Virus record (IMG/VR): IMGVR_UViG_3300021131_000003
Span: 17,659 to 81,658 of that record
Strand: one strand, 5' to 3'
Source: a virus
DNA: 64,000 bases
This document shows, piece by piece, positions 7,095 through 54,476 of this stretch. A program made the translations under genes and the position numbers. Below the pieces are notes generated by a model. It was given only the letters and a program-made list of their open reading frames with translations. It made no database searches and was not told the origin of the DNA. The first letter of the stretch is position 1. Each line of letters begins with the position of its first letter.

Positions 7095-9364
7095 TATTTA
7101 GTTGCCACCCATTTACTAGTCTGTAGGTCTTTAACTGCTTGTTGAATAGCCGCTTGTATCTTTTTAGGGTCTCCGCCCATTACATTCATATTGAAGGTAA
7201 CACCGCCGTAATTGACTGTGCTTCCTCCTCCACCGCCCAAAAGCTGTGAAGCATAACCAGCAGCATCACCACCCAAAATACTGGACAGGGTTGTTCCCTT
7301 AGCAATTGAGCCTGTCTTTAAGTATTGCTGGAACGCTGCGTTAAAGGCTTTTCCATTAGTACCGAAGAAAGAAGTAATAGCTGAAGCCGTTCCAGCGTCT
7401 TCAGTAATGCTTGAGTGCGTTTTAAAAGTTCCCCATGGGGAAGCGCCAACTATTGCTCTAAAGTCTTCTGCTGAAACGTTTCCAGCAGATAATGCTCCCA
7501 AAATTTCATTATAACGAGAGTCACCCTTAAGGGTTTTAATTGTAGCTTCCACTCCTTGTTTATAAGAAGTATAGTTTTTAACTCCATCTTTATTATTGGT
7601 AAATCCTTCTGCCTTGCCCGCGTCAACTGCCCCTGGCATAGGTTGTGTGGTAGCTAATGGATTGAACTTAGCTTTAGTATTTTCTCCAGACATCCACATT
7701 AAAATATCTGCTATAGCACTTGGTGTAGCTTTATCACCTAAACCAGCTAGTAAGTCTTTAGCAAATACATCTCCACCACCAGCGCGTCCCCCTTTATACT
7801 TAAAGAGTTGACTAGTTATGTTGTTTGGAATGATGGTTCCATCTACCTTAGGAACAAATAGCTCAGGTCCCTTTTCACCAACCATATACATATTGGATGC
7901 CGCAGTAGGTCCGCCAGAAGCTTTACCTGATATACCAAGGAGAGCTGTAAGGAATTGGATTAGCTTGTCGCCCATACCGTTACCTGCAGCGCCTAAGGTT
8001 TGAAGTAGAGCAGCCATACTATTAAGACCAAGTACGCCCTGAGGGTTAATGTTGTTCTGTATGTTGCCCATATCAGTTAAGAAGTTCTTAGTTCCAGCAA
8101 ATGTTTTAGCTCCAGCTGGGGATGCAAGAATCAACCCCTGAGTAGCAACTGCATTGCCGCGGCTAAATGCCTGGACAGCCTCGGTGGTTAACCCAGCAGC
8201 TTTAGCGTTGGCAGCATTAATAGTTGTATCCGCGCCAGCAGCAGTCTGACGAGCTTTAAATACAAGACCGTTCTTAATCATGTTATAGACAAGTGGGTCT
8301 TGGCCAAATAGATTCTGAACCAAAGAGTCCATAGAGTTTCCTGGTTGGAAACCAATCAAGACTTCGCGCTCAGATGGCTTTCTTCCAGCGCCATAAGCTT
8401 GCCCGTAGTCTCTACAAATCTTTGTCCACAAGTCATCAATAATCTTATCTGGCGGCTTTAAGTTTCCATCCGCATCACGAATAGAGATACCAACACCGCG
8501 AAGCATGTTTACATTTCTGCCTTGTTGCATAGCACCGTATGCGCGCATAGCGCCTTCAGCGCCAATACCTGGGGTGAGGTTAGATACGTTAGCTACGCCT
8601 TGCGCAATACTTCCATTGAAGTTACCGCCAGCGCCCTGTAATAAGTTAGTTCCATTAAGTCCGTAGCTTTGAGCAGCAGCAATGGCATTGATAGCATCCA
8701 TCTTGTCATTTACAGAGCCTTGAAGACCCATCTTCATCATGGCGTCTTTTACATAGTTCTGTTGATTGTCAAGAACCATAGCTGAAGGCAGAGTTGCGCC
8801 AGGGGTTGTTGGTCCCATAGCAACCTTGTTGCCCATCATGGCGTTAGCTCTTACATAAAGAAGCTGAGCTTGAACCATGTCAGATGTAGCGTTAGCTCCC
8901 ATAAGAGCTGTGCCCATTCCGTAAAGAGCCGCCGCTCCAGGGTTCTGACTTACATAATCAGATAGGTTACGGAACATGCCTCCGCCGCCAGAGGAGCCAG
9001 ATGAGCTTCCGCTTATTCCGCCACCACTAAAGGCTCCGCCACCTATTACAGTAGGCGCAGGTCCTGCAGCAATTTGATTTTGTCCACCGCCATATACAGC
9101 AGGGGCATTGTGAAAGACTGGGTCTGGAGCTACGTGATTTCCATAAACTCCGCCACCGCCGTAGCCACCGCCGTAGCCGCCAACAAAACCGCCTTGAGTT
9201 TGAACAAGCCTCTGATTACCAGACTGCATTGTTTGAACAAGGCTTGTCCACTCTTGTCTTAGAAGGGAGGTTTCTTGGCGCATACTAGAGATGCTGCTCT
9301 TGATATCAGAGACTACAAAGCTAGTACGAGACGGTAAGTTCATACCGCTCTTGCTATCAGCCAT
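7094..9364 (-). CDS. Tape measure protein, possible C-terminal lysozyme-like domain
   Basis: Gly/Ala-rich; ASGGP...YMVGEKGPELFVP..DGTIIPN motif; EN...FNPLATT..SPWGT segment; follows the chaperone. Confidence 0.88.
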   Translation of the reverse strand: MADSKSGMNLPSRTSFVVSDIKSSISSMRQETSLLRQEWTSLVQTMQSGNQRLVQTQGGFVGGYGGGYGGGGVYGNHVAPDPVFHNAPAVYGGGQNQIAAGPAPTVIGGGAFSGGGISGSSSGSSGGGGMFRNLSDYVSQNPGAAALYGMGTALMGANATSDMVQAQLLYVRANAMMGNKVAMGPTTPGATLPSAMVLDNQQNYVKDAMMKMGLQGSVNDKMDAINAIAAAQSYGLNGTNLLQGAGGNFNGSIAQGVANVSNLTPGIGAEGAMRAYGAMQQGRNVNMLRGVGISIRDADGNLKPPDKIIDDLWTKICRDYGQAYGAGRKPSEREVLIGFQPGNSMDSLVQNLFGQDPLVYNMIKNGLVFKARQTAAGADTTINAANAKAAGLTTEAVQAFSRGNAVATQGLILASPAGAKTFAGTKNFLTDMGNIQNNINPQGVLGLNSMAALLQTLGAAGNGMGDKLIQFLTALLGISGKASGGPTAASNMYMVGEKGPELFVPKVDGTIIPNNITSQLFKYKGGRAGGGDVFAKDLLAGLGDKATPSAIADILMWMSGENTKAKFNPLATTQPMPGAVDAGKAEGFTNNKDGVKNYTSYKQGVEATIKTLKGDSRYNEILGALSAGNVSAEDFRAIVGASPWGTFKTHSSITEDAGTASAITSFFGTNGKAFNAAFQQYLKTGSIAKGTTLSSILGGDAAGYASQLLGGGGGSTVNYGGVTFNMNVMGGDPKKIQAAIQQAVKDLQTSKWVATK

Positions 9365-9526: not shown

Positions 9527-10303
9527 CAAATCTAGCAAGCTCAGCGGTAGAGGAATCTGCTCACCACATGCCTTGCATGGCTTCTTCACCTCCCCAAGGC
9601 GTGGGCCTGGGTTACGTTCAAGAATGTCATCTACTAGCTTTGTTCTATCTGCCATACCTAAGCTAAGAGCGGTAGGTGCTCCAATAGCTGGCTTATCTGC
9701 CAGTGATAGTAAGCAGCCTGCTAATAGCAAGGTATTAATCTCAGAGGCAGTCTTATCGGCGTTGTCCATAAGGCGCTTCTGCACTCGACCAACAGGAAGA
9801 GTAAGAACGGCTGTTCCCATCTTTGTCTCTACTGACCACTCGCGAGATGCTTGGTCATCTAAAGTTTTAACTGGAACATCCTCTGAAAGATTGATTGTAA
9901 TGTCCTGGTCTTGATTACAGTTAAAGCAACGACCTTGAAGCTCTAGCTCATCTCCAAATGTAATTGTTCTAATACCAATCAAGATGGCGTCCCTGTCTCC
10001 AGAGAGCAGACTGTCAAGGTCATCCTTACCAACCTCCTTGCCACCTAGACCTATTAATCCACGCTGTAGTAAAAGGTTTAGGGCTTTGGCTCGGCTACCT
10101 GCTTTAGAGATAGCTTCCTCATCTGCTCCATTTAACTCTCGTACTTCAGCAGTAGTTACTAAACCAGAGTCTGAAATAAATCCGCCAGGAAGTTTCACCT
10201 CTGGGTCGGAAGGGGCCCGAGATGTGATAACCACCTCGGGCTCTTCCATAGCCTGTTGCGCGTACTTTGATACAAGTTCTGCGTCAGTAATAATGTTACT
10301 CAT
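9515..10303 (-). CDS. Tail assembly chaperone
   Basis: VKLPGG, EVRELNGADEE, GDRDAILIGIR..TFG, two CxxC; lies between tube and tape measure. Confidence 0.82.
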   Translation of the reverse strand: MSNIITDAELVSKYAQQAMEEPEVVITSRAPSDPEVKLPGGFISDSGLVTTAEVRELNGADEEAISKAGSRAKALNLLLQRGLIGLGGKEVGKDDLDSLLSGDRDAILIGIRTITFGDELELQGRCFNCNQDQDITINLSEDVPVKTLDDQASREWSVETKMGTAVLTLPVGRVQKRLMDNADKTASEINTLLLAGCLLSLADKPAIGAPTALSLGMADRTKLVDDILERNPGPRLGEVKKPCKACGEQIPLPLSLLDLFRL

Positions 10304-10321
10304 TGTGCTCCTTTAGTTTAA

Positions 10322-10954
10322 TTAAGCTAAGCTGCGACCATCTGTTGGGTTGAAGGAGGTGTCAGTGAAGAACACTGATAGACCTTCATGTACCAAGCTC
10401 ATTGACTCAAACAGGATTGCTCCATCGTTAGCGTTTAAGTCGGTATAGCTTAGCTGAGTAATCCAAGCGTTACGGACGTCAAATCCCATGCGAGGCGTAT
10501 TAGCTGCCTGAGAGTTTGGGTGGTCCATAACATAGATTTTCATGTTAACGCGGAAGCCCTGCTTATTGGTAGCTCCAGCTTGGATACCGTCACCAGATAC
10601 GGCAGCAAACATGCCGCGCATCCAAGTAATGCCTTGGTCGTTTCCGTACAAGACACCACGTTGTAGTGAGATAGGTGTGAAGGTTGTCATTCCAGGGACC
10701 TGGTGAACAGTGGTGTTGTAGCCACCCTCACGGTATTGGATTGATTGGGTGGTGATATTCAATCCTGAGATTGAAGTAAAACCACCAAGGAAGCCTGTTG
10801 ACTTTCCAGTCGTAAGGCTTGGTACAGCACCAGACACTGTGGTTAGACGAGTGTCGAAGGTGTTATCTACTGCGGTGAACTCTACGTTAAACCGAAACGA
10901 GCGTAACGGGTCGGTTGCCAAAGTAGAGAACCGATTAAGCGATGTATCTGCCAT
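10322..10954 (-). CDS. Tail tube protein (gp19-like)
   Basis: DPLRSFRF.VEF, GFTSISGL...IQYREGG, PG.T.F.PISLQRG, ESM.LVHEGL. Confidence 0.95.
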   Translation of the reverse strand: MADTSLNRFSTLATDPLRSFRFNVEFTAVDNTFDTRLTTVSGAVPSLTTGKSTGFLGGFTSISGLNITTQSIQYREGGYNTTVHQVPGMTTFTPISLQRGVLYGNDQGITWMRGMFAAVSGDGIQAGATNKQGFRVNMKIYVMDHPNSQAANTPRMGFDVRNAWITQLSYTDLNANDGAILFESMSLVHEGLSVFFTDTSFNPTDGRSLA

Positions 10955-14991: not shown

Positions 14992-15510
14992 TTAGTTGGC
15001 GTAGCTAGAAAATTGAGGGTCATTGACCATTTCATCAGGCATAACCTGCTGGCAATCAACGCTCAATAATGTGAAGTTCTCTCCAATGATACCAACCTGC
15101 TGGGCATCAAATGGGCGCCAAACCTCACCCTTCCAAACAATACGGCTGCGGTCTTGGTAGTCAGGGTTATCCATAACACCTGGCGCAATCGCGTTAATAT
15201 CATTTGCATTAAGGGTTAGATGTAACTGGTCAGCATTGTAGAAACCAGCTTCAGATACCTTAGATGTACCCTGCTTAATTACTGCTCTTACTACAGCAAT
15301 TTGGAAAGGTCCGCGCCATTCACGACCGCCATGTACTGATGGAACGTAACCCGTATCGTAAATTGGGTCGAGAACAGTATCGGTGGGGTCGTATATATAC
15401 CAGAGGGCGTGGGTGCCTACTGGACTCTTCAAGTCAGAGTCAATACCTACAAAGATATCTTTCTGCTCAAAGTCGGCGTCAAACCTACCGCCAGGGTTAT
15501 AGGCTTTCAT
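14992..15510 (-). CDS. Putative head-closure / neck protein
   Basis: GFYNADQLHLT, RIVWKGEVW, PDEMVNDPQF; position in the morphogenesis module. Confidence 0.55.
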   Translation of the reverse strand: MKAYNPGGRFDADFEQKDIFVGIDSDLKSPVGTHALWYIYDPTDTVLDPIYDTGYVPSVHGGREWRGPFQIAVVRAVIKQGTSKVSEAGFYNADQLHLTLNANDINAIAPGVMDNPDYQDRSRIVWKGEVWRPFDAQQVGIIGENFTLLSVDCQQVMPDEMVNDPQFSSYAN

Positions 15511-19258: not shown

Positions 19259-19846
19259 CTACGCAGTAATGTCGCCGACAAGTACCCAAGTATCTGTGGC
19301 ACGTTTTAACAAAGTTGCAAAAGACCATTGACCACGAGTTTTAAGTCCTGGGTTAGCGTTCACAGTTACGCCTGATGCCCCAGCTACAGTAATCTGTCCA
19401 ACACCAGTTTGAAGCAGTTGAATCTGTGTTCCAATAGCAAAAGGCACTGTTGCGTTAGTAGGTACGGTTACCGTGCTACCACCAGAGTTAGACATTTCAA
19501 TAACAAGACCGTCATCTGACAAAGCCAAAGTATAAGTAGAGCCGCCTTGTGTGTTGGTAGGTATGTGGTAAACCACGTTATTAGTAACCGCAAGAGAGGT
19601 CAGAGTTCCAACAGATGTAAGGGAAGAAGAAACTACGTTAGAGGCAAGGGATGTTCCAGAGAGCTGAGTGGCTGGGAATGAGCCCAGTACATAAGATAAA
19701 GAGTTGTAGGCGGTTGTGCCGTTACCAATCTTGCCCTTGTTAGTATCGGTCTCGTAACCAAACTCACCAGCGGCTAGTACTGGATTCTGGGAAGCCCAAA
19801 GAGCCGCGGTACCACGGCGAAACTGTAGTACTGTCTGTGCTGCCAT
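19259..19846 (-). CDS. Fibre adaptor with Mtd_N-like N-terminus
   Basis: QFRRGTA..W...NPVLAAGEFGYETDT.K.KIGNG; C-terminus WVLVGDITA. Confidence 0.8.
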   Translation of the reverse strand: MAAQTVLQFRRGTAALWASQNPVLAAGEFGYETDTNKGKIGNGTTAYNSLSYVLGSFPATQLSGTSLASNVVSSSLTSVGTLTSLAVTNNVVYHIPTNTQGGSTYTLALSDDGLVIEMSNSGGSTVTVPTNATVPFAIGTQIQLLQTGVGQITVAGASGVTVNANPGLKTRGQWSFATLLKRATDTWVLVGDITA

Positions 19847-42161: not shown

Positions 42162-42683
42162 ATGCTCAATATCAGAATTAATCTAACGATTAATCTAAGA
42201 AAGGTGTTTGCGGCAGGCCTAGCAATCTTTATGTTAGCGTCACACCTCATCTCACCTGCATATGCACTGACACGTACATCCTCTGTTCTACATGAGAGGG
42301 TCGTCACAGTGAATCTTACTTATTTAAAGGTAAGTACAACCAAATCCCAAGCAGAAGCCGCTGTAGCGAGCCCATATGCTAAGTACTTTGACCCAGAAGC
42401 CCTTGCGTTCCTGACAACCTATGCTCAGGGTATGCCTATGGCCGAATGGAAGTGCTTAGACAACATCTGGCAGCATGAGAGCCACTTCAACCCTAAAGCC
42501 CTAAACATGGGGTCTAAGGCTTTTGGTATCGCTCAATTCTTGCCAAGCACGTGGGGCAACTATAAGGTTACGAAGACAGCTAGCGCTGCACTACAAATTA
42601 AATACGGCCTACGGTACATCCACAACAGATACGGAGACGCATGTAATGCTTGGAACTTCTGGAAAACTCACGGGTGGTACTAA
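42162..42683 (+). CDS. Lytic transglycosylase (SLT/Rpf-like), secreted or membrane-anchored
   Basis: GAGGAG SD, signal-like N-terminus, W.CL..IW.HES.FNP.A, AFGIAQ, QI.YGLRYI..RYG..C.AW...GWY. Confidence 0.88.
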   Translation: MLNIRINLTINLRKVFAAGLAIFMLASHLISPAYALTRTSSVLHERVVTVNLTYLKVSTTKSQAEAAVASPYAKYFDPEALAFLTTYAQGMPMAEWKCLDNIWQHESHFNPKALNMGSKAFGIAQFLPSTWGNYKVTKTASAALQIKYGLRYIHNRYGDACNAWNFWKTHGWY

Positions 42684-42927
42684 TGCACCTTATTTTGATG
42701 GGAGCCAGGTCTGCGCTCAAGTAGACCCAGAGCTCTTCTTTCCCGAAGTAGATTCATCTAAACACGATATAAAACGAGCGCTTGCTATATGCAGCGACTG
42801 TGAGTTTAAGGAACCGTGTTTAGAGTTTGCCCTCACTCACGAGAACGAATACATATACGGTATATGGGGCGGTACAACCCCAAAGCAGCGTAGGTTAATA
42901 AAACAAGCTAGAAGAAGGCGTAGATAG
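42646..42927 (+). CDS. whiB: WhiB-family Fe-S transcription factor
   Basis: C..VDPELFFP...CxxC-x5-C, GIWGG, basic tail RRRRR. ATG at 42646 with GGAG SD. Confidence 0.93.
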   Translation: MLGTSGKLTGGTNAPYFDGSQVCAQVDPELFFPEVDSSKHDIKRALAICSDCEFKEPCLEFALTHENEYIYGIWGGTTPKQRRLIKQARRRRR

Positions 42928-42970: not shown

Positions 42971-44065
42971 TTAGGCCCAAGGTGTGAGTGTAACTGCAGC
43001 ACCTGCTGAGATTGATGCAGCACCAGCTGCAACGCTCTGGGTCTTGATTGTTCCTGTGGTTCCCTTAACTGTTGGGGTACCTGTAGGAGAAGCCACAGCG
43101 ATAGCGGTGGTGTTGTTAGATACGAACGATACAGTGTTTGTAGCGTTTGCAGTAACAGTCCATGTGCCGTTAAGTTCTGTGGTTGTAGCATCTGCAAGAC
43201 CAGCAATTGTAATCTTTGTACCAACTGGGAAGGCTGCGCCTGCGCCAGTAGCTGTTACAGTTGCGGTTGAAGAGCTAGCTGTACGAGCAGCAGCTGTGAT
43301 TGAGATTGGTGTGTTTGTAGCAGCTGAAGCTGTGGTCTGTACGAGTTCAGCGTCAGTCATAGCATCTACAGCATTTGCTGTGGTGAAGCCAAGGACGTTT
43401 GGAACTACTACATAATCTGTTCCGCTAACGTAAGCACCGTCACCAGCTGTAATAGCATTTGTGTACTCTGCCTTAGCGTATTGACCTGTAAGAGTTACGC
43501 CTGAACCAGCTGCGTTAGTCACTGTGAATGACTGACGTGTAGATGTAGCTACTGTTGCGTTTGAAAGGTTAAACGCGTTATTTGTGAAGCCTGTGATGTT
43601 TACAGCATCTCCTGGGTTCAAGAAGTTAAGAGATGTGTAGGTGATTGTTGTACCGTTACCTGAAGCCGCTGTAACAATGAAGTTACCTGGAGCTGGGGTG
43701 TATGAAGGGTATCCGCCCCAACCAGCTTCAGCACGAACGTGGTTGTCTGAAGGAACTGATTGTGTAATACCGTTATTAAGAGTTACTGTTGTGTTGCCAT
43801 AAGCAAGGTTACCTGAAGCAACATATGTGGTCTGTGACCAACCAGTGTCGCCTGTTGAACCGCCAGTCTGTGAGGCCGAAGCGCGGCGCTCATCGTTTGG
43901 CATAAGAGGGGTCTGACCCCATACAAAGTCAACTACTACGTTTCCTGCGGAATCTGTAGCGTGACCATCATTATTAACGCCGCCAGCTTGTGCCGCAATA
44001 GCTACTGCGTAAGCACCTGTAGCCTTTGGGTCACCAACCGCAGCTGGGTTGCTGTAACTTGACAT
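42971..44065 (-). CDS. PASTA-like domain protein with beta-module insertions
   Basis: VVVPNVLG.T.A.A...L ... GTIKTQSVAAG....GAAVTL. Confidence 0.7.
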   Translation of the reverse strand: MSSYSNPAAVGDPKATGAYAVAIAAQAGGVNNDGHATDSAGNVVVDFVWGQTPLMPNDERRASASQTGGSTGDTGWSQTTYVASGNLAYGNTTVTLNNGITQSVPSDNHVRAEAGWGGYPSYTPAPGNFIVTAASGNGTTITYTSLNFLNPGDAVNITGFTNNAFNLSNATVATSTRQSFTVTNAAGSGVTLTGQYAKAEYTNAITAGDGAYVSGTDYVVVPNVLGFTTANAVDAMTDAELVQTTASAATNTPISITAAARTASSSTATVTATGAGAAFPVGTKITIAGLADATTTELNGTWTVTANATNTVSFVSNNTTAIAVASPTGTPTVKGTTGTIKTQSVAAGAASISAGAAVTLTPWA

Positions 44066-44152: not shown

Positions 44153-44932
44153 TTATCGATTAGCTTGTTCCCAAGTCTTAACTGCTGAGTCAGGGTCGGC
44201 TTGATATGGGGCAGTTGTGCCATCTGGTCTAGGAATCTTAACGTCTTCTCTGATTGGGTCAGAAGGCATGCGCTTACCCCAATAACCCATTGGATAGATA
44301 AACGGCTCAGCGTTAGGATTGTTAGTGGGAGTTGGAAGCGGGTTCTCGTTCCATACGCCTTCTTCGGTAACTAATGAGGTTATGCAATAGCGTTCTCCAG
44401 AGGTTACTAATTCAACCCCGTGCTTAGTATCTCCGCTATGAAACACTACTGAACCTGCGACTGGCTTATATTTAAATCCGTACTCTGGGTATGAAATCTC
44501 CCCGCCCTCATAATCATCGTTAGGATAGATTACGGCGCCCCAAATGATTGGCTGCGGCATGTGGCGTTGATTATCAATGTGATAGAACATCTCCACAGTC
44601 GTATCACCCGTTGGGTTAGAGCCAGGCCACATCTTGATAAAGCTAACAGGGTTAGGTTTCCACTCTGTTTGGCGAACTGTATTTAATGTATCAATAATAC
44701 GTTGTACTAGATTAGGTGCTATATCGTTTACAGGTTCAAATGAGTTCTCTAGACCAGGTAGGTTAGAGGAAGAGAGATTGAACAAACGCTGTTTCCAGAA
44801 CTTAACTGGGTTTACAGGTAACTTATCCCACTCATAGTGCCTCATCCACTCCGATACGCGCTTGGTCTCTTCTGGTGTGAAGAAGTCGTAAGCAATCATA
44901 ACGTTTCCGTCGCAATGGGTCTCTATTCTCAT
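44153..44932 (-). CDS. 2OG-Fe(II) oxygenase, prolyl-4-hydroxylase-like
   Basis: HID, IYPNDDYEGGEI.YP, HGVELVTSGERY. Confidence 0.9.
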   Translation of the reverse strand: MRIETHCDGNVMIAYDFFTPEETKRVSEWMRHYEWDKLPVNPVKFWKQRLFNLSSSNLPGLENSFEPVNDIAPNLVQRIIDTLNTVRQTEWKPNPVSFIKMWPGSNPTGDTTVEMFYHIDNQRHMPQPIIWGAVIYPNDDYEGGEISYPEYGFKYKPVAGSVVFHSGDTKHGVELVTSGERYCITSLVTEEGVWNENPLPTPTNNPNAEPFIYPMGYWGKRMPSDPIREDVKIPRPDGTTAPYQADPDSAVKTWEQANR

Positions 44933-44941
44933 TTTAAGCTC

Positions 44942-45715
44942 CTAATTAAACTTGTAAAATAGCTCGTCAGTTGAGTATACGTGATAATCAGTTCTTATTT
45001 TAGGCCAAATATGCCTTTTAGCCTCTTCATCAAAGTCTTCAGAGAACTTTTTAACATCAGGCACTACTATTAGCTCGTTAAGCCTATTCAAATACGGAAG
45101 TCGAGTTTCATAGTCTTTCTTAACCTGCTCAAGGCTTACCGACAACCCTAAGTCTTTAATTAGCTTATCTGCTATGACCATAGGGTCTTTAGGGATGTCT
45201 TCCATACGCATTAAGAAGTTTACGCGCTTAGCTCTTTCTAATACTGTCAAGATTCCAGCCTCAGCATCAATAGACGGGTCAATTGGCCCGTGAATGAATG
45301 GTCGCGTATATAAGAAGTTTTTAGCTTGAAAGTTATTCATCATGTGCGGGATAACGCCATCTTGACCGTAATACAAAGAGCCTATAAGGATGCGCTTATC
45401 AAACAGGGAGGGGTCATACGATGGCGGATTAGGGTAAATTTGAGGCTTACTCTTATTAGCCACTATAAGTTGAAAGAATAAACTTGATATGTGCGTAGAC
45501 GGGTCTCTAAGAGTAGACATGATGTAGGTATTCTCATCAATGTCTGGGTGCCAACAAGCGTGAGCCGTTGGGTTCTCAATAGGCACAGGGTTTATAACGT
45601 TTATTCCGTCTTCCCGCATGTAGGGGATTAGAAAGTTTATAACGTTATTTAATATGAACCGCCCGCCAGTTCTAGGTATGTGTAGATGATAAAACGATTT
45701 ATAAGAGGTTCTCAT
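44942..45715 (-). CDS. Sulfotransferase (PAPS-dependent)
   Basis: 5'-PSB loop HLHIPRTGG; 3'-PB LRDP....SS; NFQ; C-terminal D..VY. Confidence 0.82.
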   Translation of the reverse strand: MRTSYKSFYHLHIPRTGGRFILNNVINFLIPYMREDGINVINPVPIENPTAHACWHPDIDENTYIMSTLRDPSTHISSLFFQLIVANKSKPQIYPNPPSYDPSLFDKRILIGSLYYGQDGVIPHMMNNFQAKNFLYTRPFIHGPIDPSIDAEAGILTVLERAKRVNFLMRMEDIPKDPMVIADKLIKDLGLSVSLEQVKKDYETRLPYLNRLNELIVVPDVKKFSEDFDEEAKRHIWPKIRTDYHVYSTDELFYKFN

Positions 45716-46413
45716 TATAGATACTTAGCTTTTTCCTCATCAGAGGCATACATTAAGTTTGCATCCCTATGAGCATACGCATTTCTATCATTCATAATTA
45801 CAAATGCGTATTTGAACTTATCATCAAGTATAGGTTCAGCTTTATGAGCATATACGTAATTAGACGGCATAATAACAAAGTCACCAGCTGTCGCTTTATA
45901 TTTTACGTTAAAGTTTGAAAAAGTTAGCTCTCCACCCTCGTAGTCATCATTGGGGTAGCCTACAGCAGATACTACGCACCTATACGAGTGACCATCATCA
46001 GAGTGCTCATTGAAGTATTCACCCATGCCATATCTGACTACGCTATTGACTTCGTGAAACTTCATTATCCCACAGCGGTATAGGGTTGAGTAATGCTGTA
46101 GGCATTGCTCTAAAGCCTCCGTAATAAGCTTATCTACTTCAAATAAGTCTTTTGAGTATTCATCCTCTTCACCAAGTAATCTTGGTGCAAGTTTAAAGTC
46201 CTTACAACGTCTATGCTCGGTGTTTAATGATTCGAACCCAACTCGCGCATCTTTCCAAGCAAAACGGGTACCTTCTTTAGCTAAAGCCGCTTCAATACGG
46301 TTTACTAGGTTCCACTCTTGCTTTAAAGAGTTTTTATAAACAACTATGCCAGGACCTAAGGTTTCATACTCAAGTTGGACTGGAGTGCCGTTCCAATCAA
46401 TAGTTGCGTTCAC
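45715..46413 (-). CDS. 2OG-Fe(II) oxygenase, prolyl-4-hydroxylase-like
   Basis: EHSDD, YPNDDYEGGELTF, PSNYVYAH.A.PI...KY. Confidence 0.9.
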   Translation of the reverse strand: MNATIDWNGTPVQLEYETLGPGIVVYKNSLKQEWNLVNRIEAALAKEGTRFAWKDARVGFESLNTEHRRCKDFKLAPRLLGEEDEYSKDLFEVDKLITEALEQCLQHYSTLYRCGIMKFHEVNSVVRYGMGEYFNEHSDDGHSYRCVVSAVGYPNDDYEGGELTFSNFNVKYKATAGDFVIMPSNYVYAHKAEPILDDKFKYAFVIMNDRNAYAHRDANLMYASDEEKAKYL

Positions 46414-46676
46414 TCACGACCCCACTTTACCTTGTTCCAAATGCGTTCGTGATAGTAGTACAGAACAATCTTAACAACTAGCTCAATACCAGAAGCCGCC
46501 AAAGCCAACTTACCGTTATGCGTTAAGCCATAGATAATCAAGAACGAGATTAAGTTTCCAAAGAATCTCCAGCTCACTGCCTTAGCAAGTGAACGTGCGT
46601 GAGATACCCACATAATTGGTTCTCTTTCCATATCTGTAGACCATAACCTTTCTTCGGCGTCTCCAATACCTTCCAT
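46410..46676 (-). CDS. DUF2061-like small membrane protein
   Basis: RSLAKAVSWR..G...K.VLYY.HERIW..V.WG. Confidence 0.8.
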   Translation of the reverse strand: MEGIGDAEERLWSTDMEREPIMWVSHARSLAKAVSWRFFGNLISFLIIYGLTHNGKLALAASGIELVVKIVLYYYHERIWNKVKWGRE

Positions 46677-46680
46677 ACCC

Positions 46681-47433
46681 TCATATACCCATTTCGCGGC
46701 GCTTTTGAGTGGCGCTAATAGCTTCAATGTCGTCTCCTAACTTAACTTGCTCAATCCTGTATCCAACGTCTCGACCGTAAACGATGTTAGTAATGTTTGG
46801 CATCTTGACAACCATAGGGTTAAAGAGATGTTCGTCTTCCTCAATATAGCCTTTGACCTCTGAAAAAGTTAGCGGGTCTTTCTCACTTGTGCCTTGAGTA
46901 TCGCGTACACCAATCATGACCTGTGGGGTACGCTCAGTGGCTGCATCATAGAGAGCATGATGACCTTCATGCCAAGGTTGATAACGACCAAGCATGAGAG
47001 TTGTAGGCGCTTTCCAATCAGGAAGGCCAAAGTACTGCACAATGTCTTTTGCAAGTATCTTAGCATTCTTCTCTAAACACTTGTAATCCCAGCGTGTAGG
47101 CGTTTCCCATAGCTTGTTAGTGTCTTCAAAACGGCCTTCTTGGATAGTATCCATCCAAATAACAATATCAGCTTCACCAAAAGCTTCACGCGTTGCCTGG
47201 GTTGGGCAGATAAAGTCAACCACTACATCAAGGTTTTGGTTTGAAAGCATCTTAGCCATCTCACCCATGCGTCGAGAGTGCTCAATACGGTCTTCTGGTG
47301 AAAAACCCAAATCCGAATTAATAGTGGACCGTACATAGTCTGCGTTTAGGTGAACGGCGTTTATTCGGCTGGCTAGTTCTGTAGCCAGAGTGGTCTTTCC
47401 AGACCCTGGTAAACCAATAATCTGGATAATCAA
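46681..47433 (-). CDS. cysC: Adenylylsulfate kinase fused to an HxGH nucleotidyltransferase (putative mini PAPS synthase)
   Basis: GLPGSGKTT, LNAD.VR, DLGFSPEDR, FICP; C-terminal GRYQPWHEGH, YGRDVG, ISAT..R. Confidence 0.85.
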   Translation of the reverse strand: MIIQIIGLPGSGKTTLATELASRINAVHLNADYVRSTINSDLGFSPEDRIEHSRRMGEMAKMLSNQNLDVVVDFICPTQATREAFGEADIVIWMDTIQEGRFEDTNKLWETPTRWDYKCLEKNAKILAKDIVQYFGLPDWKAPTTLMLGRYQPWHEGHHALYDAATERTPQVMIGVRDTQGTSEKDPLTFSEVKGYIEEDEHLFNPMVVKMPNITNIVYGRDVGYRIEQVKLGDDIEAISATQKRREMGI

Positions 47434-47444
47434 ATGGGTACTCC

Positions 47445-49001
47445 TTAGGTCTTGGTTGGTGGGCGGTAGTTGTGGGTAAGTATACCCTCTGCGTAGAACA
47501 AATCGTTAGGTTCGACATCCAACATAGAGACTTCAATAGGCTCCTGTTTGATATCAATAGAGGTGATGTTGACAGGTGCGTTATTCTCATCAACAAGCCT
47601 ATCGCCAACCTTAAGGTTAGCCATCTGCTGGAACTGCCATACGCCATCGCGCTCAATGAACATCCAGTGTTCCCACGTGAGTTTGTACTGTCCGTTTACT
47701 AGGTAGTAATAAGGCTCTGTATATTGATGGTTGTAGGTGACCTTAGTGGTGCGCTTAGTAATGGTTGAAACAGTATCAGTAGACCAAACAGAGCTTGGGA
47801 ACCATTTAGAACTATCTTCACCGTTTGGATAGGTTGGGATATCAGCGGTCATAACCTCATCGCCAACCTGAAGGTACTCAATAGCAATCTTAGTTCCATC
47901 TGCCTTTGTAACCATAGAACCAACTGCCCAACATCCACCAAAGCTTGGAGTAGCAATAATTACGGTTGGGGTAGCAATAATAACAGGATGGCTAATAGGC
48001 GTAGCGATAATTACTGGCGTAGCAATAATAACTGGCGTAGCAATAATAACTGGGGTAGCAATAATAACAGAATGGCTAATTGGCGTAGCAATAATAGGAG
48101 CGCTGGTAATAGTCAAGGAAGTTCCAATAACTGGTACCTGACCGTCGTAGAGGGTTACTGAGTAGCCACCGTTTGATAATGATGGACAGGTAAATGACAC
48201 CGAGTAAAGACTCTGACTATAACCAACATAGGTATTTCCAACAGTAAGATTAGTAAGAGCCTTAGGGAAGTAGCCGCTAACGGTAACTGTTTGACCCGCA
48301 TAAGCTGGGTTTGGAGAGATACCAGAGATAGAGTTTTGCTGAGCTGGGGTAGCAATAATAAAGCTTGGAGTAGCGATAATTGGGGCAGCAGCTACGGTTA
48401 CTGAGTTACTTGCAACAGAGGCGACGCCAGTTCCATTAGCATTAGTAGCAGTAATAGTAAATGTGTACGGAACACCAGAGCTTAGTCCAGTTACTGTAAT
48501 AGAACCAGCAGTTGTAGCTGTTCCAGTTTTACCGCCTGGTGAAGATGTAGCTGTATAAAGAGTAATGGTTTTTCCGCCATTATCAACTGGTGCAGCAAAG
48601 CTAACAGTGGCAGCACCGCTTCCAGCGCTACCTGCAGTAGCGGAGATAGTCTGAACAGTAGTAGGTACTGTTGTTACGTTAGCGGTTGCAGCTGGGGATG
48701 ATGGTGTTGATGAGCCTTGAGAGTTAACCGCCGTAACCGTAAATGAATAAGGTGAAAGCTGAGAGGGCATGCCTGTAATCTGTATAGGAGAGGCACTTCC
48801 AGTAGCTGTAAATGAAACACCAGAAGCAGTAGCAGTAGCTATATAACTTGTAGCTGGCGCGCCAGTAGATGCTGCAGTAAACGCTACGTTAGCCGCGCCG
48901 TTATACCAAGGCCTATTTGTTCCTACGTCAGTTGCTGTTACGCCAGTAGGTGGGTTTGGGCCTACCTGACGTGATGAGTGGGTAACACCAATAATAGGCA
49001 T
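47445..49001 (-). CDS. Fn3/Fn3/IPT protein with IIATP repeats and a C-terminal Hint (BIL-like) domain
   Basis: GG|CWAVGSMV..ADG...IE.L.VGDEV; block B TWEH; LKVGD; FYAEGILTHN|Y. Confidence 0.88.
   Translation of the reverse strand: MPIIGVTHSSRQVGPNPPTGVTATDVGTNRPWYNGAANVAFTAASTGAPATSYIATATASGVSFTATGSASPIQITGMPSQLSPYSFTVTAVNSQGSSTPSSPAATANVTTVPTTVQTISATAGSAGSGAATVSFAAPVDNGGKTITLYTATSSPGGKTGTATTAGSITVTGLSSGVPYTFTITATNANGTGVASVASNSVTVAAAPIIATPSFIIATPAQQNSISGISPNPAYAGQTVTVSGYFPKALTNLTVGNTYVGYSQSLYSVSFTCPSLSNGGYSVTLYDGQVPVIGTSLTITSAPIIATPISHSVIIATPVIIATPVIIATPVIIATPISHPVIIATPTVIIATPSFGGCWAVGSMVTKADGTKIAIEYLQVGDEVMTADIPTYPNGEDSSKWFPSSVWSTDTVSTITKRTTKVTYNHQYTEPYYYLVNGQYKLTWEHWMFIERDGVWQFQQMANLKVGDRLVDENNAPVNITSIDIKQEPIEVSMLDVEPNDLFYAEGILTHNYRPPTKT
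47948..48095 (-). repeat. Coding tandem repeats of (V)IIATP, 18-bp core, 7 copies (2 more near 48345-48385)
   Basis: Repeated gtagcaataat(a/t)ac units on the plus strand. Confidence 0.9.
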
Positions 49002-49799
49002 TTAAGCACTCAAATCGCCAACAAGCACCCAGTTATTCGTACCTAAACAGATTAAGGTAGCAGAAGAGTATGCCGTTCTTAGTTTTAGTCCTGGTGTTCC
49101 GTTAAGAGTAACGCCCGTTCCCGCTACGCTTACTCCTGATGTTAAAGCTAGTAAGTGAATCTGCGCACCCGCAGAGAGCGAGCTCAAGCTAGTTGTTACG
49201 TTAAATGCAAAAGCGCCGTTCATCTGAACCATAGTTGCAGAGTCGCTTGGAGCTAATGTGTAGGCCGCAGTCTTAGCCGAGGTATTGACTGCAAAAGAGA
49301 TATAAGAAGTAGAGTCTGTGGACCCATCGGCTTTTAAGAACTGGCTAGAGGTTCCGCTGCTTTTAACAAAAGAGGTTGCAGTAAGGTTACCGCTCTGGTC
49401 AACAGAGGCAAGGGTTGAGCCAGTGTTGCTTTGCCAATCCTGTAGCACTACAGACTGTCCAGATACGCCTTTTATCGTTAAACCCTTAGTTGTTGTGTTA
49501 GGGGTTGTAATAACGTTAGCGTTATCGCTAGTCTTACGGATGTACTGTGTATGGGTATCGGTTACGATTCCCGCTTCAAGGTTATTAAGACGAGCAGCTA
49601 CTGTTCCAAAGGTACCAGTTGGGGTTGTATAAGAGCTAGAAGATGTAGCGTTAGAGCCAACAGCTGGGTTAGCTCCCACAGTCTGCTCAATGATGGTGAT
49701 TTCATCCATCATGTTGTTAATATCTGTAGCGTCTACAATATCTACAGTATTAGCTCTGTGGACAAATCCAGGGTTGGTTCCACTTGGATACGTTGCCAT
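49002..49799 (-). CDS. Fibre adaptor-like protein
   Basis: MATYP...V.A.DIN...EI..IE..VG.NP head; C-terminal domain paralogous to 19259-19846 (PGLK.R...ATL...WVLVGDLSA). Confidence 0.75.
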   Translation of the reverse strand: MATYPSGTNPGFVHRANTVDIVDATDINNMMDEITIIEQTVGANPAVGSNATSSSSYTTPTGTFGTVAARLNNLEAGIVTDTHTQYIRKTSDNANVITTPNTTTKGLTIKGVSGQSVVLQDWQSNTGSTLASVDQSGNLTATSFVKSSGTSSQFLKADGSTDSTSYISFAVNTSAKTAAYTLAPSDSATMVQMNGAFAFNVTTSLSSLSAGAQIHLLALTSGVSVAGTGVTLNGTPGLKLRTAYSSATLICLGTNNWVLVGDLSA

Positions 49800-49825
49800 C
49801 TTGTTCCCTTCAAGCCGTAGGTTCT

Positions 49826-49861
49826 ATTGTCGAGCAAATAGAACGTATTTTCCGCCTAAAC
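49826..49861 (-). promoter_or_regulatory. Putative late promoter GTTTAG-N24-GACAAT driving the adaptor-Hint-sulfation operon
   Basis: Recurrent motif. Confidence 0.6.
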
Positions 49862-50942: not shown

Positions 50943-51123
50943 CTTTTTTCTCCTTTGGGTTACGTAGTCGGAAGGTTGCTACCCACAAAAAGACAGAGAT
51001 GAGGATTGCGTCTCCCACTACAGTCTTGGCAGAACCAGTTAATACAAGCCATGCAGAGAAGAGACCAACAAAGGTCCAAATCTGATTAGCTAAGTCGGCT
51101 AACAAGCCTTTAATGAACTTCAT
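50935..51123 (-). CDS. Small two-TM membrane protein
   Basis: QIWTFVGLFSAWLVLTGSAK.VVG. Confidence 0.75.
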   Translation of the reverse strand: MKFIKGLLADLANQIWTFVGLFSAWLVLTGSAKTVVGDAILISVFLWVATFRLRNPKEKKDE

Positions 51124-53738
51124 CCGAGTCTCCTTCTGAATCGAATAATCGCGCCGCCAACAATGGTGGCTACTAGTATTTTCTTTGCTTTCTTACGGGT
51201 TACTGGAGACATGTCGTTTCCGATATTAGATAGAGCAACAAAAGCTTTATTAACGGCTTCTGCGCCTGGTATTGCAGCAACGGTTGATGGGAGAGGTGTT
51301 AGAACAACAGGGACAGCAACATCTGGAGCATTAAAAGTAGCTCCTCCTGGTTGACCAATAAATGTCTCGCTAGTAGTAATAGCGTCTGGTGGAATTGGTA
51401 AGCCAGAACCTGGTGGTGGCGCTGGAGGAGTGAGCTTTCCATCTTCGCCAACAACCTGTGGAGCGCTCTGAGTACCAAAGAACTGAATGCCACCGTTCTC
51501 AACACCAACCTTGTCTACTTGGACATGCGCTACTAAAACCTCAGCTGGTGGTACCAAAGGTGTATCCTTAGGCAGAGTAGATGGATTATTTGGAATTAAG
51601 TTAGGGACAGGTGCAGCTGGTGTCGGATTATCCTGAGGTGCGGGTGGAGTTGGCGCGGGTGCTGGTGCGGGACCTGGAGCAACAGGTGCTGGAGTCGGAG
51701 CAGGAGCTGGCGCGTCTGAAGGTGATGAAGGTACAGGCTTCGGCTCTTCTGGGGTTGCTGGAGAGGGGTCTTTAGGTGCGTCAGGAGCGGGAGCTGGTGC
51801 TGGGGCAGGTTCAGGATTTGCTGGTGCTGGTTGAGGGTCTGCGGGTGCTGCAGGTGCGGGCGCAGGGTCAGGTTGAGGATTGGGTGCTGGGTCTGGAACG
51901 GGCGCTGGGTCAGGTGCTGGAGCTGGAGCAGGTTCAGGCGCCGCAGGAGCAGGGGCTGCTACAGGAGCTGGCTCAGGGGCCACTGGTGGAGTTATAGATG
52001 AAGTGGTTGAAGAAGTTGTTGTTGAACTTTCTGTATTTGATGCCGACTGAGACGAAGTATGAGAGGCGTCAACAGTTGAGGACTGGGAAGCACTATCGGA
52101 GGGGGCGCTAGATGTCTGAGAACTTGAACCCTGAGATTGATTCTGAGACGAATCAGTACTTGGAGCAGGCTGCGCAGCAGCTGCTGCAGCGGCTGCAGCA
52201 GAAGCAGCTTCTTGAGCAAGCCGAGCAGATTCAGCCTCAGCAGCCGCTTTCTGAGCAGCAGCTTCAGCATCTTTCTGAGCTTGCAACTGAAGCTGAGAGG
52301 CAACATACTGAGAAGCAGCAATGGAGACTGTGGTAACTGCTGTTTCTAATGCAGTCTTAGCGTCGTTTGCAGCAACCACCGCTGTATTTGCTAGACGATT
52401 AGCCGTATTGACGGCTGTATTTAAATTACTCTGTGCAGTTGCTAAATCCGCTACTGATTGGTCATATGCAGATTGAGCTGCAGCAATCGCAGACTTTTGT
52501 ACACCTACTGCCGTCAATGCTGTCTGCAAAGCTTGATATGCCGCGTCTTTAACAGCTAGTTGTGAATTATACGTAGATTGAGCGCTATCTACAGTTGTTT
52601 GCGCAGTGGAGACCGCAGATACCAAAGTTGGGTCTGGAGCACTAGTAGTAGAGGTGACATGGCTATAGTTAGTTGAAGTTGGAGATGTCCAGATATTGTT
52701 ATATCCCCATCCCATAGTGACGCCTGCGCCACCGCCGTTTTCATAATAATAAAGAGTTATATCTTGAGTTTGGCCTGGAGTTACTGAATACCATTGGCTG
52801 TACGGGCTCCAAGTTAATCCTTGGTCTCTCCAGTTACTTATTGATAGCTGACCGTTTATGTAAAGTTTAGAGCCATCGTCAGAATATACGGCGTACTTTA
52901 TAGAGGTAGTATCTGGAACAGTTATCTGTCCTTTAAACACCACTATCACATGGTCTGATAGACCAGAGTTAAGTATTTGACCGCTTCCCCAGTTAAAAGC
53001 AATAGAAGGGACAACAGTTGTTAGTACAGGCGTTCCAAGGTTATCTAGAGAAGGAGAAGCCCCGTTAGCAGCTTTATAAACAGTTGCTACGATTCCTGGG
53101 GCAGTAGTTGCTACTGAAACAAGAGGCGCTGTAGATAATGCGGTTTGGGCATCCGTAAGAGAAGTTTGAGCGGTGGATAAGTTTGTAGACGCCGAATTTA
53201 AATCAGAGGTAGCTTTAGATAGAGAAGAATTAGCCGTATCGGCGGTGCTTTGTAAAGGTGGAAGAGCCGCTTGAGCTGTTGTAAGGGTAGTTTGATTAGT
53301 AGCAGCAGTTACTGTTGCTGAATCAACAATCTCTTGCGCTGGCGGTATCTGTGCAGCAGCAGTTGTAGCGGCAGCAATAGCGGTATTAGCTACCGATATC
53401 TTATTAGAAGCTTCAGTTACAGAGGTAACAACTGCCGTATCAACAGTTACAGCCTGCGTTATTTCTGGAGTTGGAAGAAGAGTGGTAACCGCATCATTGG
53501 CTTTAGTTACAGCGGTAGCTACCGTCGCAGTTGCTGTATCAATCTTGCTTTGAATAGTAGATAGGTCAACAGTAGTTACTGTTGCAGTATCTTGCACTGA
53601 CGCTGGTGCTAAAGAATCTGTCGGGGCAGGCGAAACTACCGCCTGGTTAGCGGTGTCATCGGCGTATGCGTTTGAGTGACCTAATAAGTAAAAAGCTGGT
53701 GCTGCGGCTAGTGCTGCGATATGTCGCAGTTGTTTTAT
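51120..53738 (-). CDS. Secreted, C-terminally anchored PA14-domain protein with coiled coil and Pro-rich stalk (ATA start)
   Basis: PA14 motifs FNWGSG, F.GQI, SDDGS.LYING, YYENGGGA. In-frame signal peptide upstream of the ORF-track GTG; TM segment then RRR. Confidence 0.82.
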   Translation of the reverse strand: MKQLRHIAALAAAPAFYLLGHSNAYADDTANQAVVSPAPTDSLAPASVQDTATVTTVDLSTIQSKIDTATATVATAVTKANDAVTTLLPTPEITQAVTVDTAVVTSVTEASNKISVANTAIAAATTAAAQIPPAQEIVDSATVTAATNQTTLTTAQAALPPLQSTADTANSSLSKATSDLNSASTNLSTAQTSLTDAQTALSTAPLVSVATTAPGIVATVYKAANGASPSLDNLGTPVLTTVVPSIAFNWGSGQILNSGLSDHVIVVFKGQITVPDTTSIKYAVYSDDGSKLYINGQLSISNWRDQGLTWSPYSQWYSVTPGQTQDITLYYYENGGGAGVTMGWGYNNIWTSPTSTNYSHVTSTTSAPDPTLVSAVSTAQTTVDSAQSTYNSQLAVKDAAYQALQTALTAVGVQKSAIAAAQSAYDQSVADLATAQSNLNTAVNTANRLANTAVVAANDAKTALETAVTTVSIAASQYVASQLQLQAQKDAEAAAQKAAAEAESARLAQEAASAAAAAAAAAQPAPSTDSSQNQSQGSSSQTSSAPSDSASQSSTVDASHTSSQSASNTESSTTTSSTTSSITPPVAPEPAPVAAPAPAAPEPAPAPAPDPAPVPDPAPNPQPDPAPAPAAPADPQPAPANPEPAPAPAPAPDAPKDPSPATPEEPKPVPSSPSDAPAPAPTPAPVAPGPAPAPAPTPPAPQDNPTPAAPVPNLIPNNPSTLPKDTPLVPPAEVLVAHVQVDKVGVENGGIQFFGTQSAPQVVGEDGKLTPPAPPPGSGLPIPPDAITTSETFIGQPGGATFNAPDVAVPVVLTPLPSTVAAIPGAEAVNKAFVALSNIGNDMSPVTRKKAKKILVATIVGGAIIRFRRRLG

Positions 53739-53963: not shown

Positions 53964-54476
53964 TTAAATATAGCTCCAAAAACATAAAATTATGTAACGA
54001 ACTGCCCCAGAGTACGGCTGTATCGCATGCAGAGTATACGCATCGTGTACAGTGAGTAAACCAGGCTTTGGCGTGAGTTTATAATCCTGCTCTGGATATA
54101 GCAACTCTCCGCCGTCAAAGTCATTATTTAAATATAATACGCAAGCGTACTTTAATGGGTCTTCAGGTGATGAAGAATCTCTATGTGGTAGTGAGAGGTT
54201 CTCAGGTTTTCTGCGAGAAAAGTAAATATGTCCTTTGATAGGTTTAGTTTCTTTAAACTCATCAACTATAAACTTATATATTCGGTCTTTAATGCTATTA
54301 GTTAATTCAACTGCTTCAGGAAAATGCTGCATTAAAGTATTAAGCTGCATAGTTGTATTAGGTAAGATTGGGCCAGTATCGCCCGTGTTCCAAGGCTCTA
54401 TATTTAAAATGGTTTCTAGTAAAAAAGAAACCTCAGACTCTGATAAGAAGCCCTCAGCAACCTTTATGTTATCCAT
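53964..54476 (-). CDS. 2OG-Fe(II) oxygenase, prolyl-4-hydroxylase-like
   Basis: PHRD, LYLNNDFDGGEL.YP, LH.I.....VRY. Confidence 0.88.
   Translation of the reverse strand: MDNIKVAEGFLSESEVSFLLETILNIEPWNTGDTGPILPNTTMQLNTLMQHFPEAVELTNSIKDRIYKFIVDEFKETKPIKGHIYFSRRKPENLSLPHRDSSSPEDPLKYACVLYLNNDFDGGELLYPEQDYKLTPKPGLLTVHDAYTLHAIQPYSGAVRYIILCFWSYI

Follow-up and report, generated by a model that had tools for sequence, protein, structure and literature searches.

The present study concerns a run of genes on the minus strand of a viral genome, at positions 44153-49861 of a 64,000-nucleotide window (the whole stretch of DNA analyzed here) that corresponds to positions 17,659 to 81,658 of the IMG/VR virus record IMGVR_UViG_3300021131_000003. 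The run encodes a 518-amino-acid (aa) protein (47445-49001) with Ile-Ile-Ala-Thr-Pro (IIATP) repeats and a C-terminal Hint domain, together with two 2-oxoglutarate (2OG)-Fe(II) oxygenases, oxy1 (45715-46413) and oxy2 (44153-44932), a putative sulfotransferase (44942-45715), an adenosine 5'-phosphosulfate (APS)-kinase-like fusion (46681-47433), and a small DUF2061 membrane protein (46410-46727). Searches of viral contigs in both directions found oxy2 together with a short-repeat protein, and it is very likely that the repeat protein and oxy2 work together. We consider it probable that the repeat is an oxygenase substrate and give proline an even or slightly better chance of being the hydroxylated residue, and we lean toward the reading that the run as a whole comprises a tail-fiber-associated repeat protein and enzymes dedicated to modifying it.

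IMG/VR (2.9 million contigs) was searched from four starting points, namely, the sulfotransferase, the Hint domain, oxy2, and the repeat as a DNA pattern; the loci retrieved are referred to below by L numbers. The oxy2 search gave 177 stretches with 38 relatives, and the 18 loci with at least 3.5 kb of upstream sequence were taken as informative. At least three IIATP-type units were present on the same strand, 1.3-3.6 kb upstream of oxy2, in 16 of these 18 loci, and the remaining two (L003 and L037) had variant repeats before a Hint domain, IQIAFNP/IQIQVP or PVIINE/PVVVND. In the reverse search, DNA patterns for IIATPPPIIATP and IIATPIIATP matched 17 and five contigs, respectively, 19 in all; oxy2 was present in 16 of them, and the other three stop inside the tract or no more than 0.6 kb past it. 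The two-way count was, thus, 16/16 for informative repeat contigs and 18/18 for informative oxy2 loci. An earlier sequence-only reading of the window had proposed the repeat protein as the dedicated substrate of the neighboring enzymes; the conserved pair with prolyl-hydroxylase-like oxygenases, found from both search directions, supports that part of the proposal, and the target residue and sulfation are among the parts that it does not carry.

Most IIATP proteins of the oxy2 loci were small (150-380 aa) and had a brief N-terminal part, then a long repeat, and a Cys-rich tail in place of the Hint domain, and their cassette consisted of a DUF6171 zinc ribbon, a small prolyl 4-hydroxylase (P4H; PF13640), DUF6065, a 182-aa protein, oxy2, and a JmjC_2 protein. 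The maximum-likelihood tree of oxy2 (39 rows) showed a shallow clade of 28 rows and approximately five deep branches, represented by the window, L003/L004, L037/L049, L051/L052, and the L018 group. Every branch with upstream sequence was paired with a repeat protein, and the exchange of Hint and Cys-rich ends required at least two to three changes on this tree. The pairing was also kept despite changes of genome position and N-terminal architecture: the cassette of the window is located before lysis and terminase genes, and those of L003 and L004 directly before homologues of window gene 14992-15510 and the sheath and tube genes. In L003, a complete 99-kb record, the sole PF13640 match lies directly after the repeat-Hint gene.

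These results bear on the possibility that the enzymes have nothing to do with the repeat protein and are auxiliary or "moron" genes, placed there since accessory genes tend to insert near tail-fiber genes. 2OG oxygenases are common in aquatic phages, in which they are filed as auxiliary metabolic genes (the category of phrog_61), and oxy1-like genes were present in 27 of 80 loci collected around the kinase (see below), none of which had a Hint protein. However, a pairing that is complete in both directions among 2.9 million contigs and survives changes of genome position and C-terminal domain argues against such an explanation, which is already disfavored and which we regard as very improbable. 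Repeat expansion at the DNA level, without selection on the peptide, was also rejected, because the codons used for the IIAT units vary greatly from locus to locus, and the peptide is, therefore, what is conserved.

As the sequence-only reading had stated, the 518-aa protein contains exactly nine IIATP units, at residues 208, 215, 303, 313, 319, 325, 331, 341, and 348. The first two separate an Fn3 region from an Ig-like domain, and the other seven, as (V/P)IIATP units, make up the main tract (residues 303-352; 47946-48095, minus strand), which is the proposed substrate and ends four residues before the first residue of the Hint domain, Cys357. Tandem Repeats Finder assigned this tract a period of 18, 3.9 copies, and 94% matches. 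The architecture Fn3-Fn3-IPT, as it had been read, was upheld in part: one fn3 domain was called by Pfam (37.3 bits, cut-off 25), the second was not, and the IPT domain corresponds to a single match of an Ig-like stretch with the Ig-like domain of the Bacteroides surface glycan-binding protein SGBP-B (E 8e-4). Homologous architectures were found in L003, L010, L013, L017, L018, and L021. Systems for ribosomally synthesized and post-translationally modified peptides (RiPPs) resemble the run in that a substrate gene stands beside tailoring genes; membership of the repeat protein among RiPP precursors was rejected, since its 518 aa include folded Fn3 and Ig-like domains and it is not a short leader-core precursor.

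Regarding the Hint domain (47445-47933), its presence at the C terminus was confirmed by PT-HINT (28.8 bits, cut-off 27.7). It begins with Cys357 after Gly-Gly and ends with His-Asn at residues 512-513, followed by Tyr and a 7-aa tail, and C1, H154, and N155 of the domain were invariant in a three-way alignment of the window, L003, and L010. Since Tyr follows His-Asn and only seven residues remain, self-cleavage or transfer is expected instead of splicing. A protein-splicing intein was ruled out because there is neither a +1 nucleophile nor a functional C-extein, and a non-splicing, self-cleaving type similar to bacterial intein-like (BIL) and Hedgehog Hog domains is predicted from these residues. 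The Hint matches of L022 and L023, unlike that of the window, are internal with Cys directly after. The window Hint domain was matched by 52 deposited phage records, mostly Erwinia jumbo phages. One deposited Hint protein, gp112 of Erwinia phage Alexandra (L155, 3017-4459), combines collagen-like Gly-X-Y repeats with a C-terminal Hint domain in a tail-fiber region.

The second oxygenase, oxy2, is a 259-aa protein with a conserved C-terminal extension that had no match in Pfam, and its classification as prolyl-hydroxylase-like was borne out by a structure model and the catalytic residues. The model (predicted local distance difference test [pLDDT] score 85.3) was closest in fold to the prolyl hydroxylase of virus PBCV-1 (5c5t, E 3.8e-8), and further close folds were PHD2 and the P4H of Bacillus anthracis (3itq). 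H118, D120, H171, and R181, which constitute an intact HxD...H...R motif, were invariant in nine sequences. Oxygenases with this C-terminal extension are rare, with five end-to-end representatives among 1.84 billion entries, and the only match among deposited phages was to a 68-residue core in Prochlorococcus phage P-RSM4. The first oxygenase, the 232-aa P4H-like oxy1, matched PF13640 (2OG-FeII_Oxy_3) at 33.5 bits (cut-off 27), also in agreement with the sequence-only reading, and relatives of oxy1 directly follow the Hint gene in L003, L013, and L157. Peptidyl-proline hydroxylation is predicted for both enzymes from gene context, and the oxygenase gene adjoining a proline-free repeat in L157 (see below) calls for caution here.

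A third oxygenase, the 170-aa small P4H-like oxy3 (53964-54476, minus strand), was recognized by phrog_61 and by tblastn with the small P4H of L024. It is a homologue of the small cassette oxygenase of relatives, is located here 4 kb upstream, and may be part of the system. Just downstream of oxy3, an 825-aa protein (51120-53597) combines a PA14 domain (33 bits) with a long stalk rich in Pro and Ala, and may be a second oxygenase substrate of the same phage. The cassettes of relatives add AspH-like (PF05118) and JmjC_2 (PF08007) proteins and an N-acetylglucosamine (GlcNAc) transferase of the Skp1 type (PF11397); the last of these follows the Hint gene in L014 (73 bits), and our own profile, derived from the L014 protein, detected it in the cassettes of L051 and L052. 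Characterized members of the enzyme families found here and in relatives hydroxylate protein side chains. Two genes upstream of the repeat-Hint gene, L003 encodes a fusion of a GT2 glycosyltransferase with a tetratricopeptide repeat (TPR) part (4743-5795), and the TPR part scored 26.3 bits for the peptide-substrate-binding domain of prolyl 4-hydroxylase (cut-off 27). The GT2-TPR, p182, JmjC, DUF6065, unk228, DUF6171, and GlcNAc-transferase genes of relatives had no homologue in the record of our phage at E 1e-3.

The Hint search yielded 48 stretches and 11 relatives, from which two internal inteins and one repeat of L010 were left out. In the remaining eight loci, the next gene after the Hint gene was P4H-like in L013 and of the Sulfotransfer_2 type in L017, L018, L020 (the contig of L010), and L021. 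In L014 it was the Skp1-type GlcNAc transferase, and L015 and L016 both had a Ser/Thr-rich protein at this position. Repeats preceding the Hint domain in these loci were diverse, comprising FFPP/YFPP, PPSF, IIATP, VSPVG, and Ser/Thr/Trp-rich sequences. The protein of L014 (7769-11490) bears (VSPVG)n, and the proteins of L015 (902-2611) and L016 (6923-10558) bear Ser/Thr/Trp-rich repeats, with a 300-aa protein following the second Ser/Thr-rich protein; PF13640 gave no match in these three incomplete records. A separate island in L156 encodes ST2 (a phage family of sulfotransferases described below), AspH-like, P4H-like, DUF2061-like, and, by our own reading, JmjC-like proteins, together with a distant relative of the GlcNAc transferase (own profile, E 3.5e-7). 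Within this island there is also a small open reading frame (ORF) on the minus strand (approximately 10180-10330) with seven Ala-Pro-Ala-Lys-Lys units, recalling the substrate repeat of the PBCV-1 P4H.

An association of the repeat protein with tail fibers is suggested by its neighbors. The preceding gene (49002-49799, minus strand) encodes a 265-aa protein that matched phrog_21978 at residues 153-264 and had no Pfam match at E 10; the gene is present as previously read, and the term "adaptor" applied to it was only a label, its C-terminal domain being tail-fiber-like. This domain of approximately 90 aa is also present in the tail-fiber-like gene 19259-19846, which matches tail-fiber and minor-tail PHROGs, and it ends the gene located just upstream of the repeat protein in L010, L013, L017, L021, L026, L030, L031, L037, L038, L040, and L046. 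Gene 19259-19846 belongs to the virion structural region, in which it immediately follows the genes of the two large structural proteins. Since it shares its C-terminal domain with gene 49002-49799, two alternative fiber tips or docking sites are suggested. The minus-strand run is closed, 87 bases past oxy2, by a 364-aa Ala/Thr/Ser/Gly-rich protein (42971-44065) with a weak PASTA match only, which may be another fiber component.

It may also be considered that the repeat protein works with the enzymes and is no virion fiber, being instead a released or secreted product, RiPP-like and either freed through the Hint domain or bearing a Cys-rich knot, or a scaffold for positioning the enzymes. The small size and Cys-rich tail of most IIATP proteins are in keeping with this idea. 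On the other hand, the repeat gene is always found among fiber-like genes, after a protein with the tail-fiber C-terminal domain; the repeat protein of the window has Fn3 and Ig-like domains; and Alexandra gp112, with its repeats and Hint domain, is annotated as a virion structural protein, which is evidence by annotation only. We regard a role outside the virion as improbable.

The sulfotransferase (257 aa) was identified by its fold and motifs alone, and these bore out the earlier assignment. Sulfotransferases that use 3'-phosphoadenosine 5'-phosphosulfate (PAPS) have a 5'-phosphosulfate loop of the PKxGxT type near the N terminus and a 3'-phosphate motif of the RxPxxRxxS type. The corresponding motifs in the window are HIPRTGGR, in which Arg occupies the position where Lys is expected (Lys is present in two of six relatives), and LRDPSTHISS, of which R70, P72, and S78 were invariant in seven sequences. 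Pfam gave no match for the protein at E values up to 10, PF03567 (Sulfotransfer_2) matched nothing in the phage record, and comparison of the sequence with the PDB returned chance-level matches only (E 0.17 and above). In structural comparisons of the AlphaFold model (pLDDT 84.6), all 50 VIA matches listed were PAPS sulfotransferases, with heparan sulfate 2-O-sulfotransferase as the best (Z 11.2, root-mean-square deviation 5.0, 212 aligned residues) and the 6-O enzyme at Z 10.6, and Foldseek E-values were only approximately 0.02. The hhalign program gave a 97.6% probability for a relationship to the ST2 phage family, a member of which scored 28.9 bits for PF03567 (cut-off 22).

The sulfotransferase search gave 153 pattern stretches and nine relatives. 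The closest loci, L003 and L004, contain the same block of kinase, DUF2061, sulfotransferase, and oxy2. Ahead of this block, L003 has an oxy1-like gene and the gene for a 460-aa protein that combines the Ig-like domain of the window protein with the IQIAFNP/IQIQVP repeats and a Hint domain. The cassettes of the window, L003, and L004 include the sulfotransferase, which stands between the two oxygenases or next to oxy2. A sulfotransferase of the window type or of ST2 was present in seven of the ten loci with Pro repeats and a Hint domain (window, L003, L010, L017, L018, L021, and L028), ST2 directly abutting the Hint gene in L010, L017, L018, and L021, and in none of the 24 Cys-tail loci. Sulfation of the repeat protein, as put forward in the sequence-only reading, is unsupported as written; it is drawn from this co-occurrence of sulfotransferase and Hint-repeat genes, and we consider it possible but doubtful that the repeat protein is a sulfate acceptor too.

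The 250-aa fusion protein matched APS_kinase PF01583 at 63.3 bits (cut-off 21.1) over residues 2-84, and phrog_10255 over its full length, and contains the P-loop GLPGSGKT, in line with the previous assignment of an APS kinase/HxGH fusion. The PF01583 alignment covers model positions 4-91 of 152 only, the kinase part being approximately 130 aa, and APS kinases in the PDB matched this part at E 1.5e-11. The C-terminal half has WHEGH (HxGH) and ISATQKR (ISxTxxR) motifs; nicotinamide mononucleotide adenylyltransferases (NMNATs) were nearest to it (E 0.03-0.5), and CTP_transf_like scored 19.7 bits, under its cut-off of 21. We rejected the identification of this half as an ATP sulfurylase in a "mini PAPS synthase" because PF01747 had no match in the record at E 0.01, with a control that matched in five of 14 genomes. 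The fusion was 64-78% identical to its relatives, some of which are named adenylylsulfate kinase by the data sources. The DUF2061 protein was confirmed by PF09834 (58.9 bits), with Met33 or Met39 as its probable true start. Two observations connect DUF2061 with sulfate activation: a DUF2061 gene is located in a nodH-nodP-nodQ locus, according to a published account, and DUF2061 is fused elsewhere to a GTP_EFTU-type protein that is CysN-like by our own reading.

The kinase fusion is among the most frequent genes of these phages, with at least 580 viral contigs and 4975 protein clusters to its name. Neighborhoods were counted in the best 80 loci. DUF2061 adjoined the kinase in 74 of these, and a sulfotransferase of either type was present in 17, in 13 of which it was within approximately 1.6 kb of the kinase/DUF2061 pair by our own reading of coordinates. 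A screen of the 80 loci with a regular expression for sulfotransferase motifs, the pattern of which was too narrow, gave eight matches, all of the ST2 type. Five long records were chosen that had no sulfotransferase within 10 kb of the kinase; a sulfotransferase was located elsewhere in three of them, and only one of the five had a Hint protein. Neither of the two tested sulfotransferase types was detected in a complete 114-kb genome, which has the pair, or in one 73%-complete record. According to our own reading, neighbors of the kinase/DUF2061 module in many loci (L073-L152) included WhiB-like, endolysin-like, and Hsp20-like genes. The kinase plausibly supplies PAPS to phage sulfotransferases where these are present.

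Several observations weigh against a run dedicated as a whole to the repeat protein. Since one shallow clade supplies 28 of the 39 oxy2 rows and dominates the 16/18 count, the independent cases of pairing number about six, not sixteen. In L157, a P4H-like gene directly follows the gene for a 1226-aa protein (5198-8878, minus strand) that consists of Cys-rich tandem modules, a proline-free (Asn-Thr-Ile/Val)n repeat, five glycines, and a Hint domain. Proline is, therefore, not a universal target: either residues other than proline are modified in part of the system, or the L157 oxygenase has another role. The heparan sulfate 2-O and 6-O enzymes, to which the sulfotransferase is nearest in fold, act on carbohydrate, and a GT2 profile found no match in the phage record. 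Within 10 kb of the kinase, Hint proteins were absent from all of the best 80 loci. There was also no Hint match in a 95-kb, 87%-complete record whose genes include those for the kinase, DUF2061, oxygenases, and a sulfotransferase of 26% identity. Fusion proteins of approximately 41% identity in Casjensviridae (L001, 7001-7711, Clavibacter phage 33; L002, 7001-7726, Stenotrophomonas phage Bhz60) are located beside NADAR and near MazG and a DNA methyltransferase, with no annotated sulfotransferase in the 14.7-kb regions, a context suggestive of nucleotide or NAD-related chemistry.

These observations need to be weighed together with the explanation that the repeat protein is a target of hydroxylation alone. 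In that case, the kinase/DUF2061 pair would be a general phage module, and the sulfotransferase would act elsewhere, for example on a host-envelope glycan, on a small molecule, or on a sugar carried by a different protein, with the pair supplying PAPS for such acceptors or feeding host sulfur assimilation. This explanation draws on the abundance of the kinase with DUF2061, far beyond sulfotransferases and away from Hint proteins, on the carbohydrate sulfotransferases as closest folds, and on the records of L117 and L111, in which ST2 is present with no Hint match. Moreover, in L005 and L009, the sulfotransferase is near a gene that we read as a NodU-type carbamoyltransferase, relatives are named adenylylsulfate kinase by data sources, and the COBRA paper reads the 62 phage cysC genes that it reports from lakes in terms of assimilatory sulfur metabolism, with no mention of sulfotransferases. 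Against it stand the position of the sulfotransferase within the cassette in the window, L003, and L004, the four Hint genes abutted by ST2, the distribution of sulfotransferases between Hint-type (7/10) and Cys-tail (0/24) loci, and the phage record itself, in which profile searches detected no PAPS reductase and no ATP sulfurylase domain. We judge this division of roles to be possible but less likely than not.

The sequence-only reading had gone further and re-read phage cysC in general as part of protein modification. This generalization fails because the kinase/DUF2061 pair is very common and Hint proteins are missing within 10 kb in the best 80 loci; of the co-occurrence anticipated there, the tie of oxy2 to repeats was found (16/18 and 16/19), and that of the kinase/DUF2061 pair to Hint was not found in these 80 loci. 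This cysC-like kinase is a fusion almost always accompanied by a small membrane protein, which is not predicted by simple sulfur assimilation.

From the list of parts, their intact motifs, and the two-way co-occurrence, we infer the following chemical steps for a dedicated modification system. In the cytoplasm of the infected cell, oxy1, oxy2, and perhaps oxy3 would hydroxylate the tract, most likely at the Pro of each (V)IIATP unit. The Hint domain would form a thioester at Gly356-Cys357 and, with no +1 nucleophile, would cleave itself off or hand the new C terminus to another nucleophile. The mature product would be an Fn3/Ig-like protein ending in a modified repeat. In the weakest step, the sulfotransferase would sulfate hydroxyls of the same protein, with PAPS from the APS-kinase-like fusion acting with DUF2061, and the new hydroxyproline, Thr, or an attached sugar may be the sites. 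In its fullest form, this scheme would produce a chemically new fiber tip, namely, a polyanionic tail rich in hydroxyproline and O-sulfated, which the Hint domain would expose or ligate to another virion component, and the phage cysC fusion with DUF2061 would be a self-contained PAPS supply for viral or host-surface targets, not for sulfur assimilation; we regard this full form as unlikely.

The literature search found no description of a phage system of this kind. Closest to it among known systems is the P4H of PBCV-1 (vCPH), also the best fold match of oxy2, with which the window shares a small virus-encoded P4H and proline repeats of the same virus; according to a review, vCPH hydroxylates the Pro-Ala-Pro-Lys repeats of that virus. 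PBCV-1 differs in that it infects a eukaryotic alga and uses a single enzyme, with no gene-level substrate pairing, Hint domain, or sulfation genes, whereas the repeats of the window are hydrophobic (Ile-Ile-Ala-Thr-Pro) and several oxygenase types co-occur. With Hog and BIL Hint domains, the window domain shares the N-terminal Cys, the terminal His-Asn, and the lack of a +1 nucleophile, but it has no sterol-recognition part and is preceded by a phage fiber-like protein ending in a repeat. In the Skp1 pathway of Dictyostelium and Toxoplasma, the prolyl 4-hydroxylase PhyA acts on one proline of one cellular protein, followed by the GlcNAc transferase Gnt1. This pathway is similar in that a cytoplasmic P4H makes hydroxyproline and a transferase decorates it, and it differs from the window, in which the tract is long and repeated and a sulfotransferase stands in place of the glycosyltransferase.

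Among sulfation systems, RaxST with RaxPQ performs the tyrosine sulfation of RaxX, and this system and the rhizobial NodH sulfotransferase, with NodPQ for PAPS synthesis, both have a dedicated sulfate-activation gene beside a sulfotransferase serving one product, an arrangement that the window may share. The window differs in having no recognizable ATP sulfurylase domain and in the fusion of the kinase to an NMNAT-like HxGH domain. Mycobacteriophages encode the glycosylation of their own capsid and tail proteins, and these are also actinobacterial phages with transferase genes that decorate structural proteins, but they are not known to have a hydroxylase battery, repeat-plus-Hint substrate, or sulfation.

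In the gene run, the seven minus-strand ORFs (49799-49002, 49001-47445, 47433-46681, 46727-46410, 46413-45715, 45715-44942, and 44932-44153) are tightly packed in the order previously described, with junctions between two extremes, a gap of 11 bases and an overlap of 47 bases, the latter if the DUF2061 ORF is taken from its listed TTG codon. The single promoter motif proposed for the run was not supported: a sigma-70 scan gave 10 sites against 13.4 expected, none of which was upstream of 49799, the motif was not identifiable in the 63-base spacer, and a promoter/terminator scan showed no enrichment.

The window comes from an 81.7-kb viral record with an estimated completeness of 86%, and coding in the window is almost all on the minus strand. 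PHROG matches identified terminase, portal, major head protein, tail sheath, and tail tube genes, which indicate a contractile tail. The major capsid protein shared 72-74% identity with its counterparts in Streptomyces phages, BRock and LuckySocke among them, and, by our own reading of the sequence, gene 42523-42927 is WhiB-like; an actinobacterial host is, therefore, likely. Comparison of the whole region with deposited phages at the DNA level gave no match, and a tRNA scan found none. Four DNA sequencing runs contained this DNA (shares 0.05-0.19), with no RNA run among the matches listed.

2OG-Fe(II) oxygenases and cysC are abundant in aquatic viromes, where they have been filed as auxiliary metabolic genes without a known substrate. 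For one family of these oxygenases, the locus described here and its relatives offer a testable substrate, a short repeat encoded next door. Hydroxylation of a fiber, followed by the addition of sulfate or sugar, would be a class of post-translational modification that could alter adsorption, host range, or particle stability in these phages.

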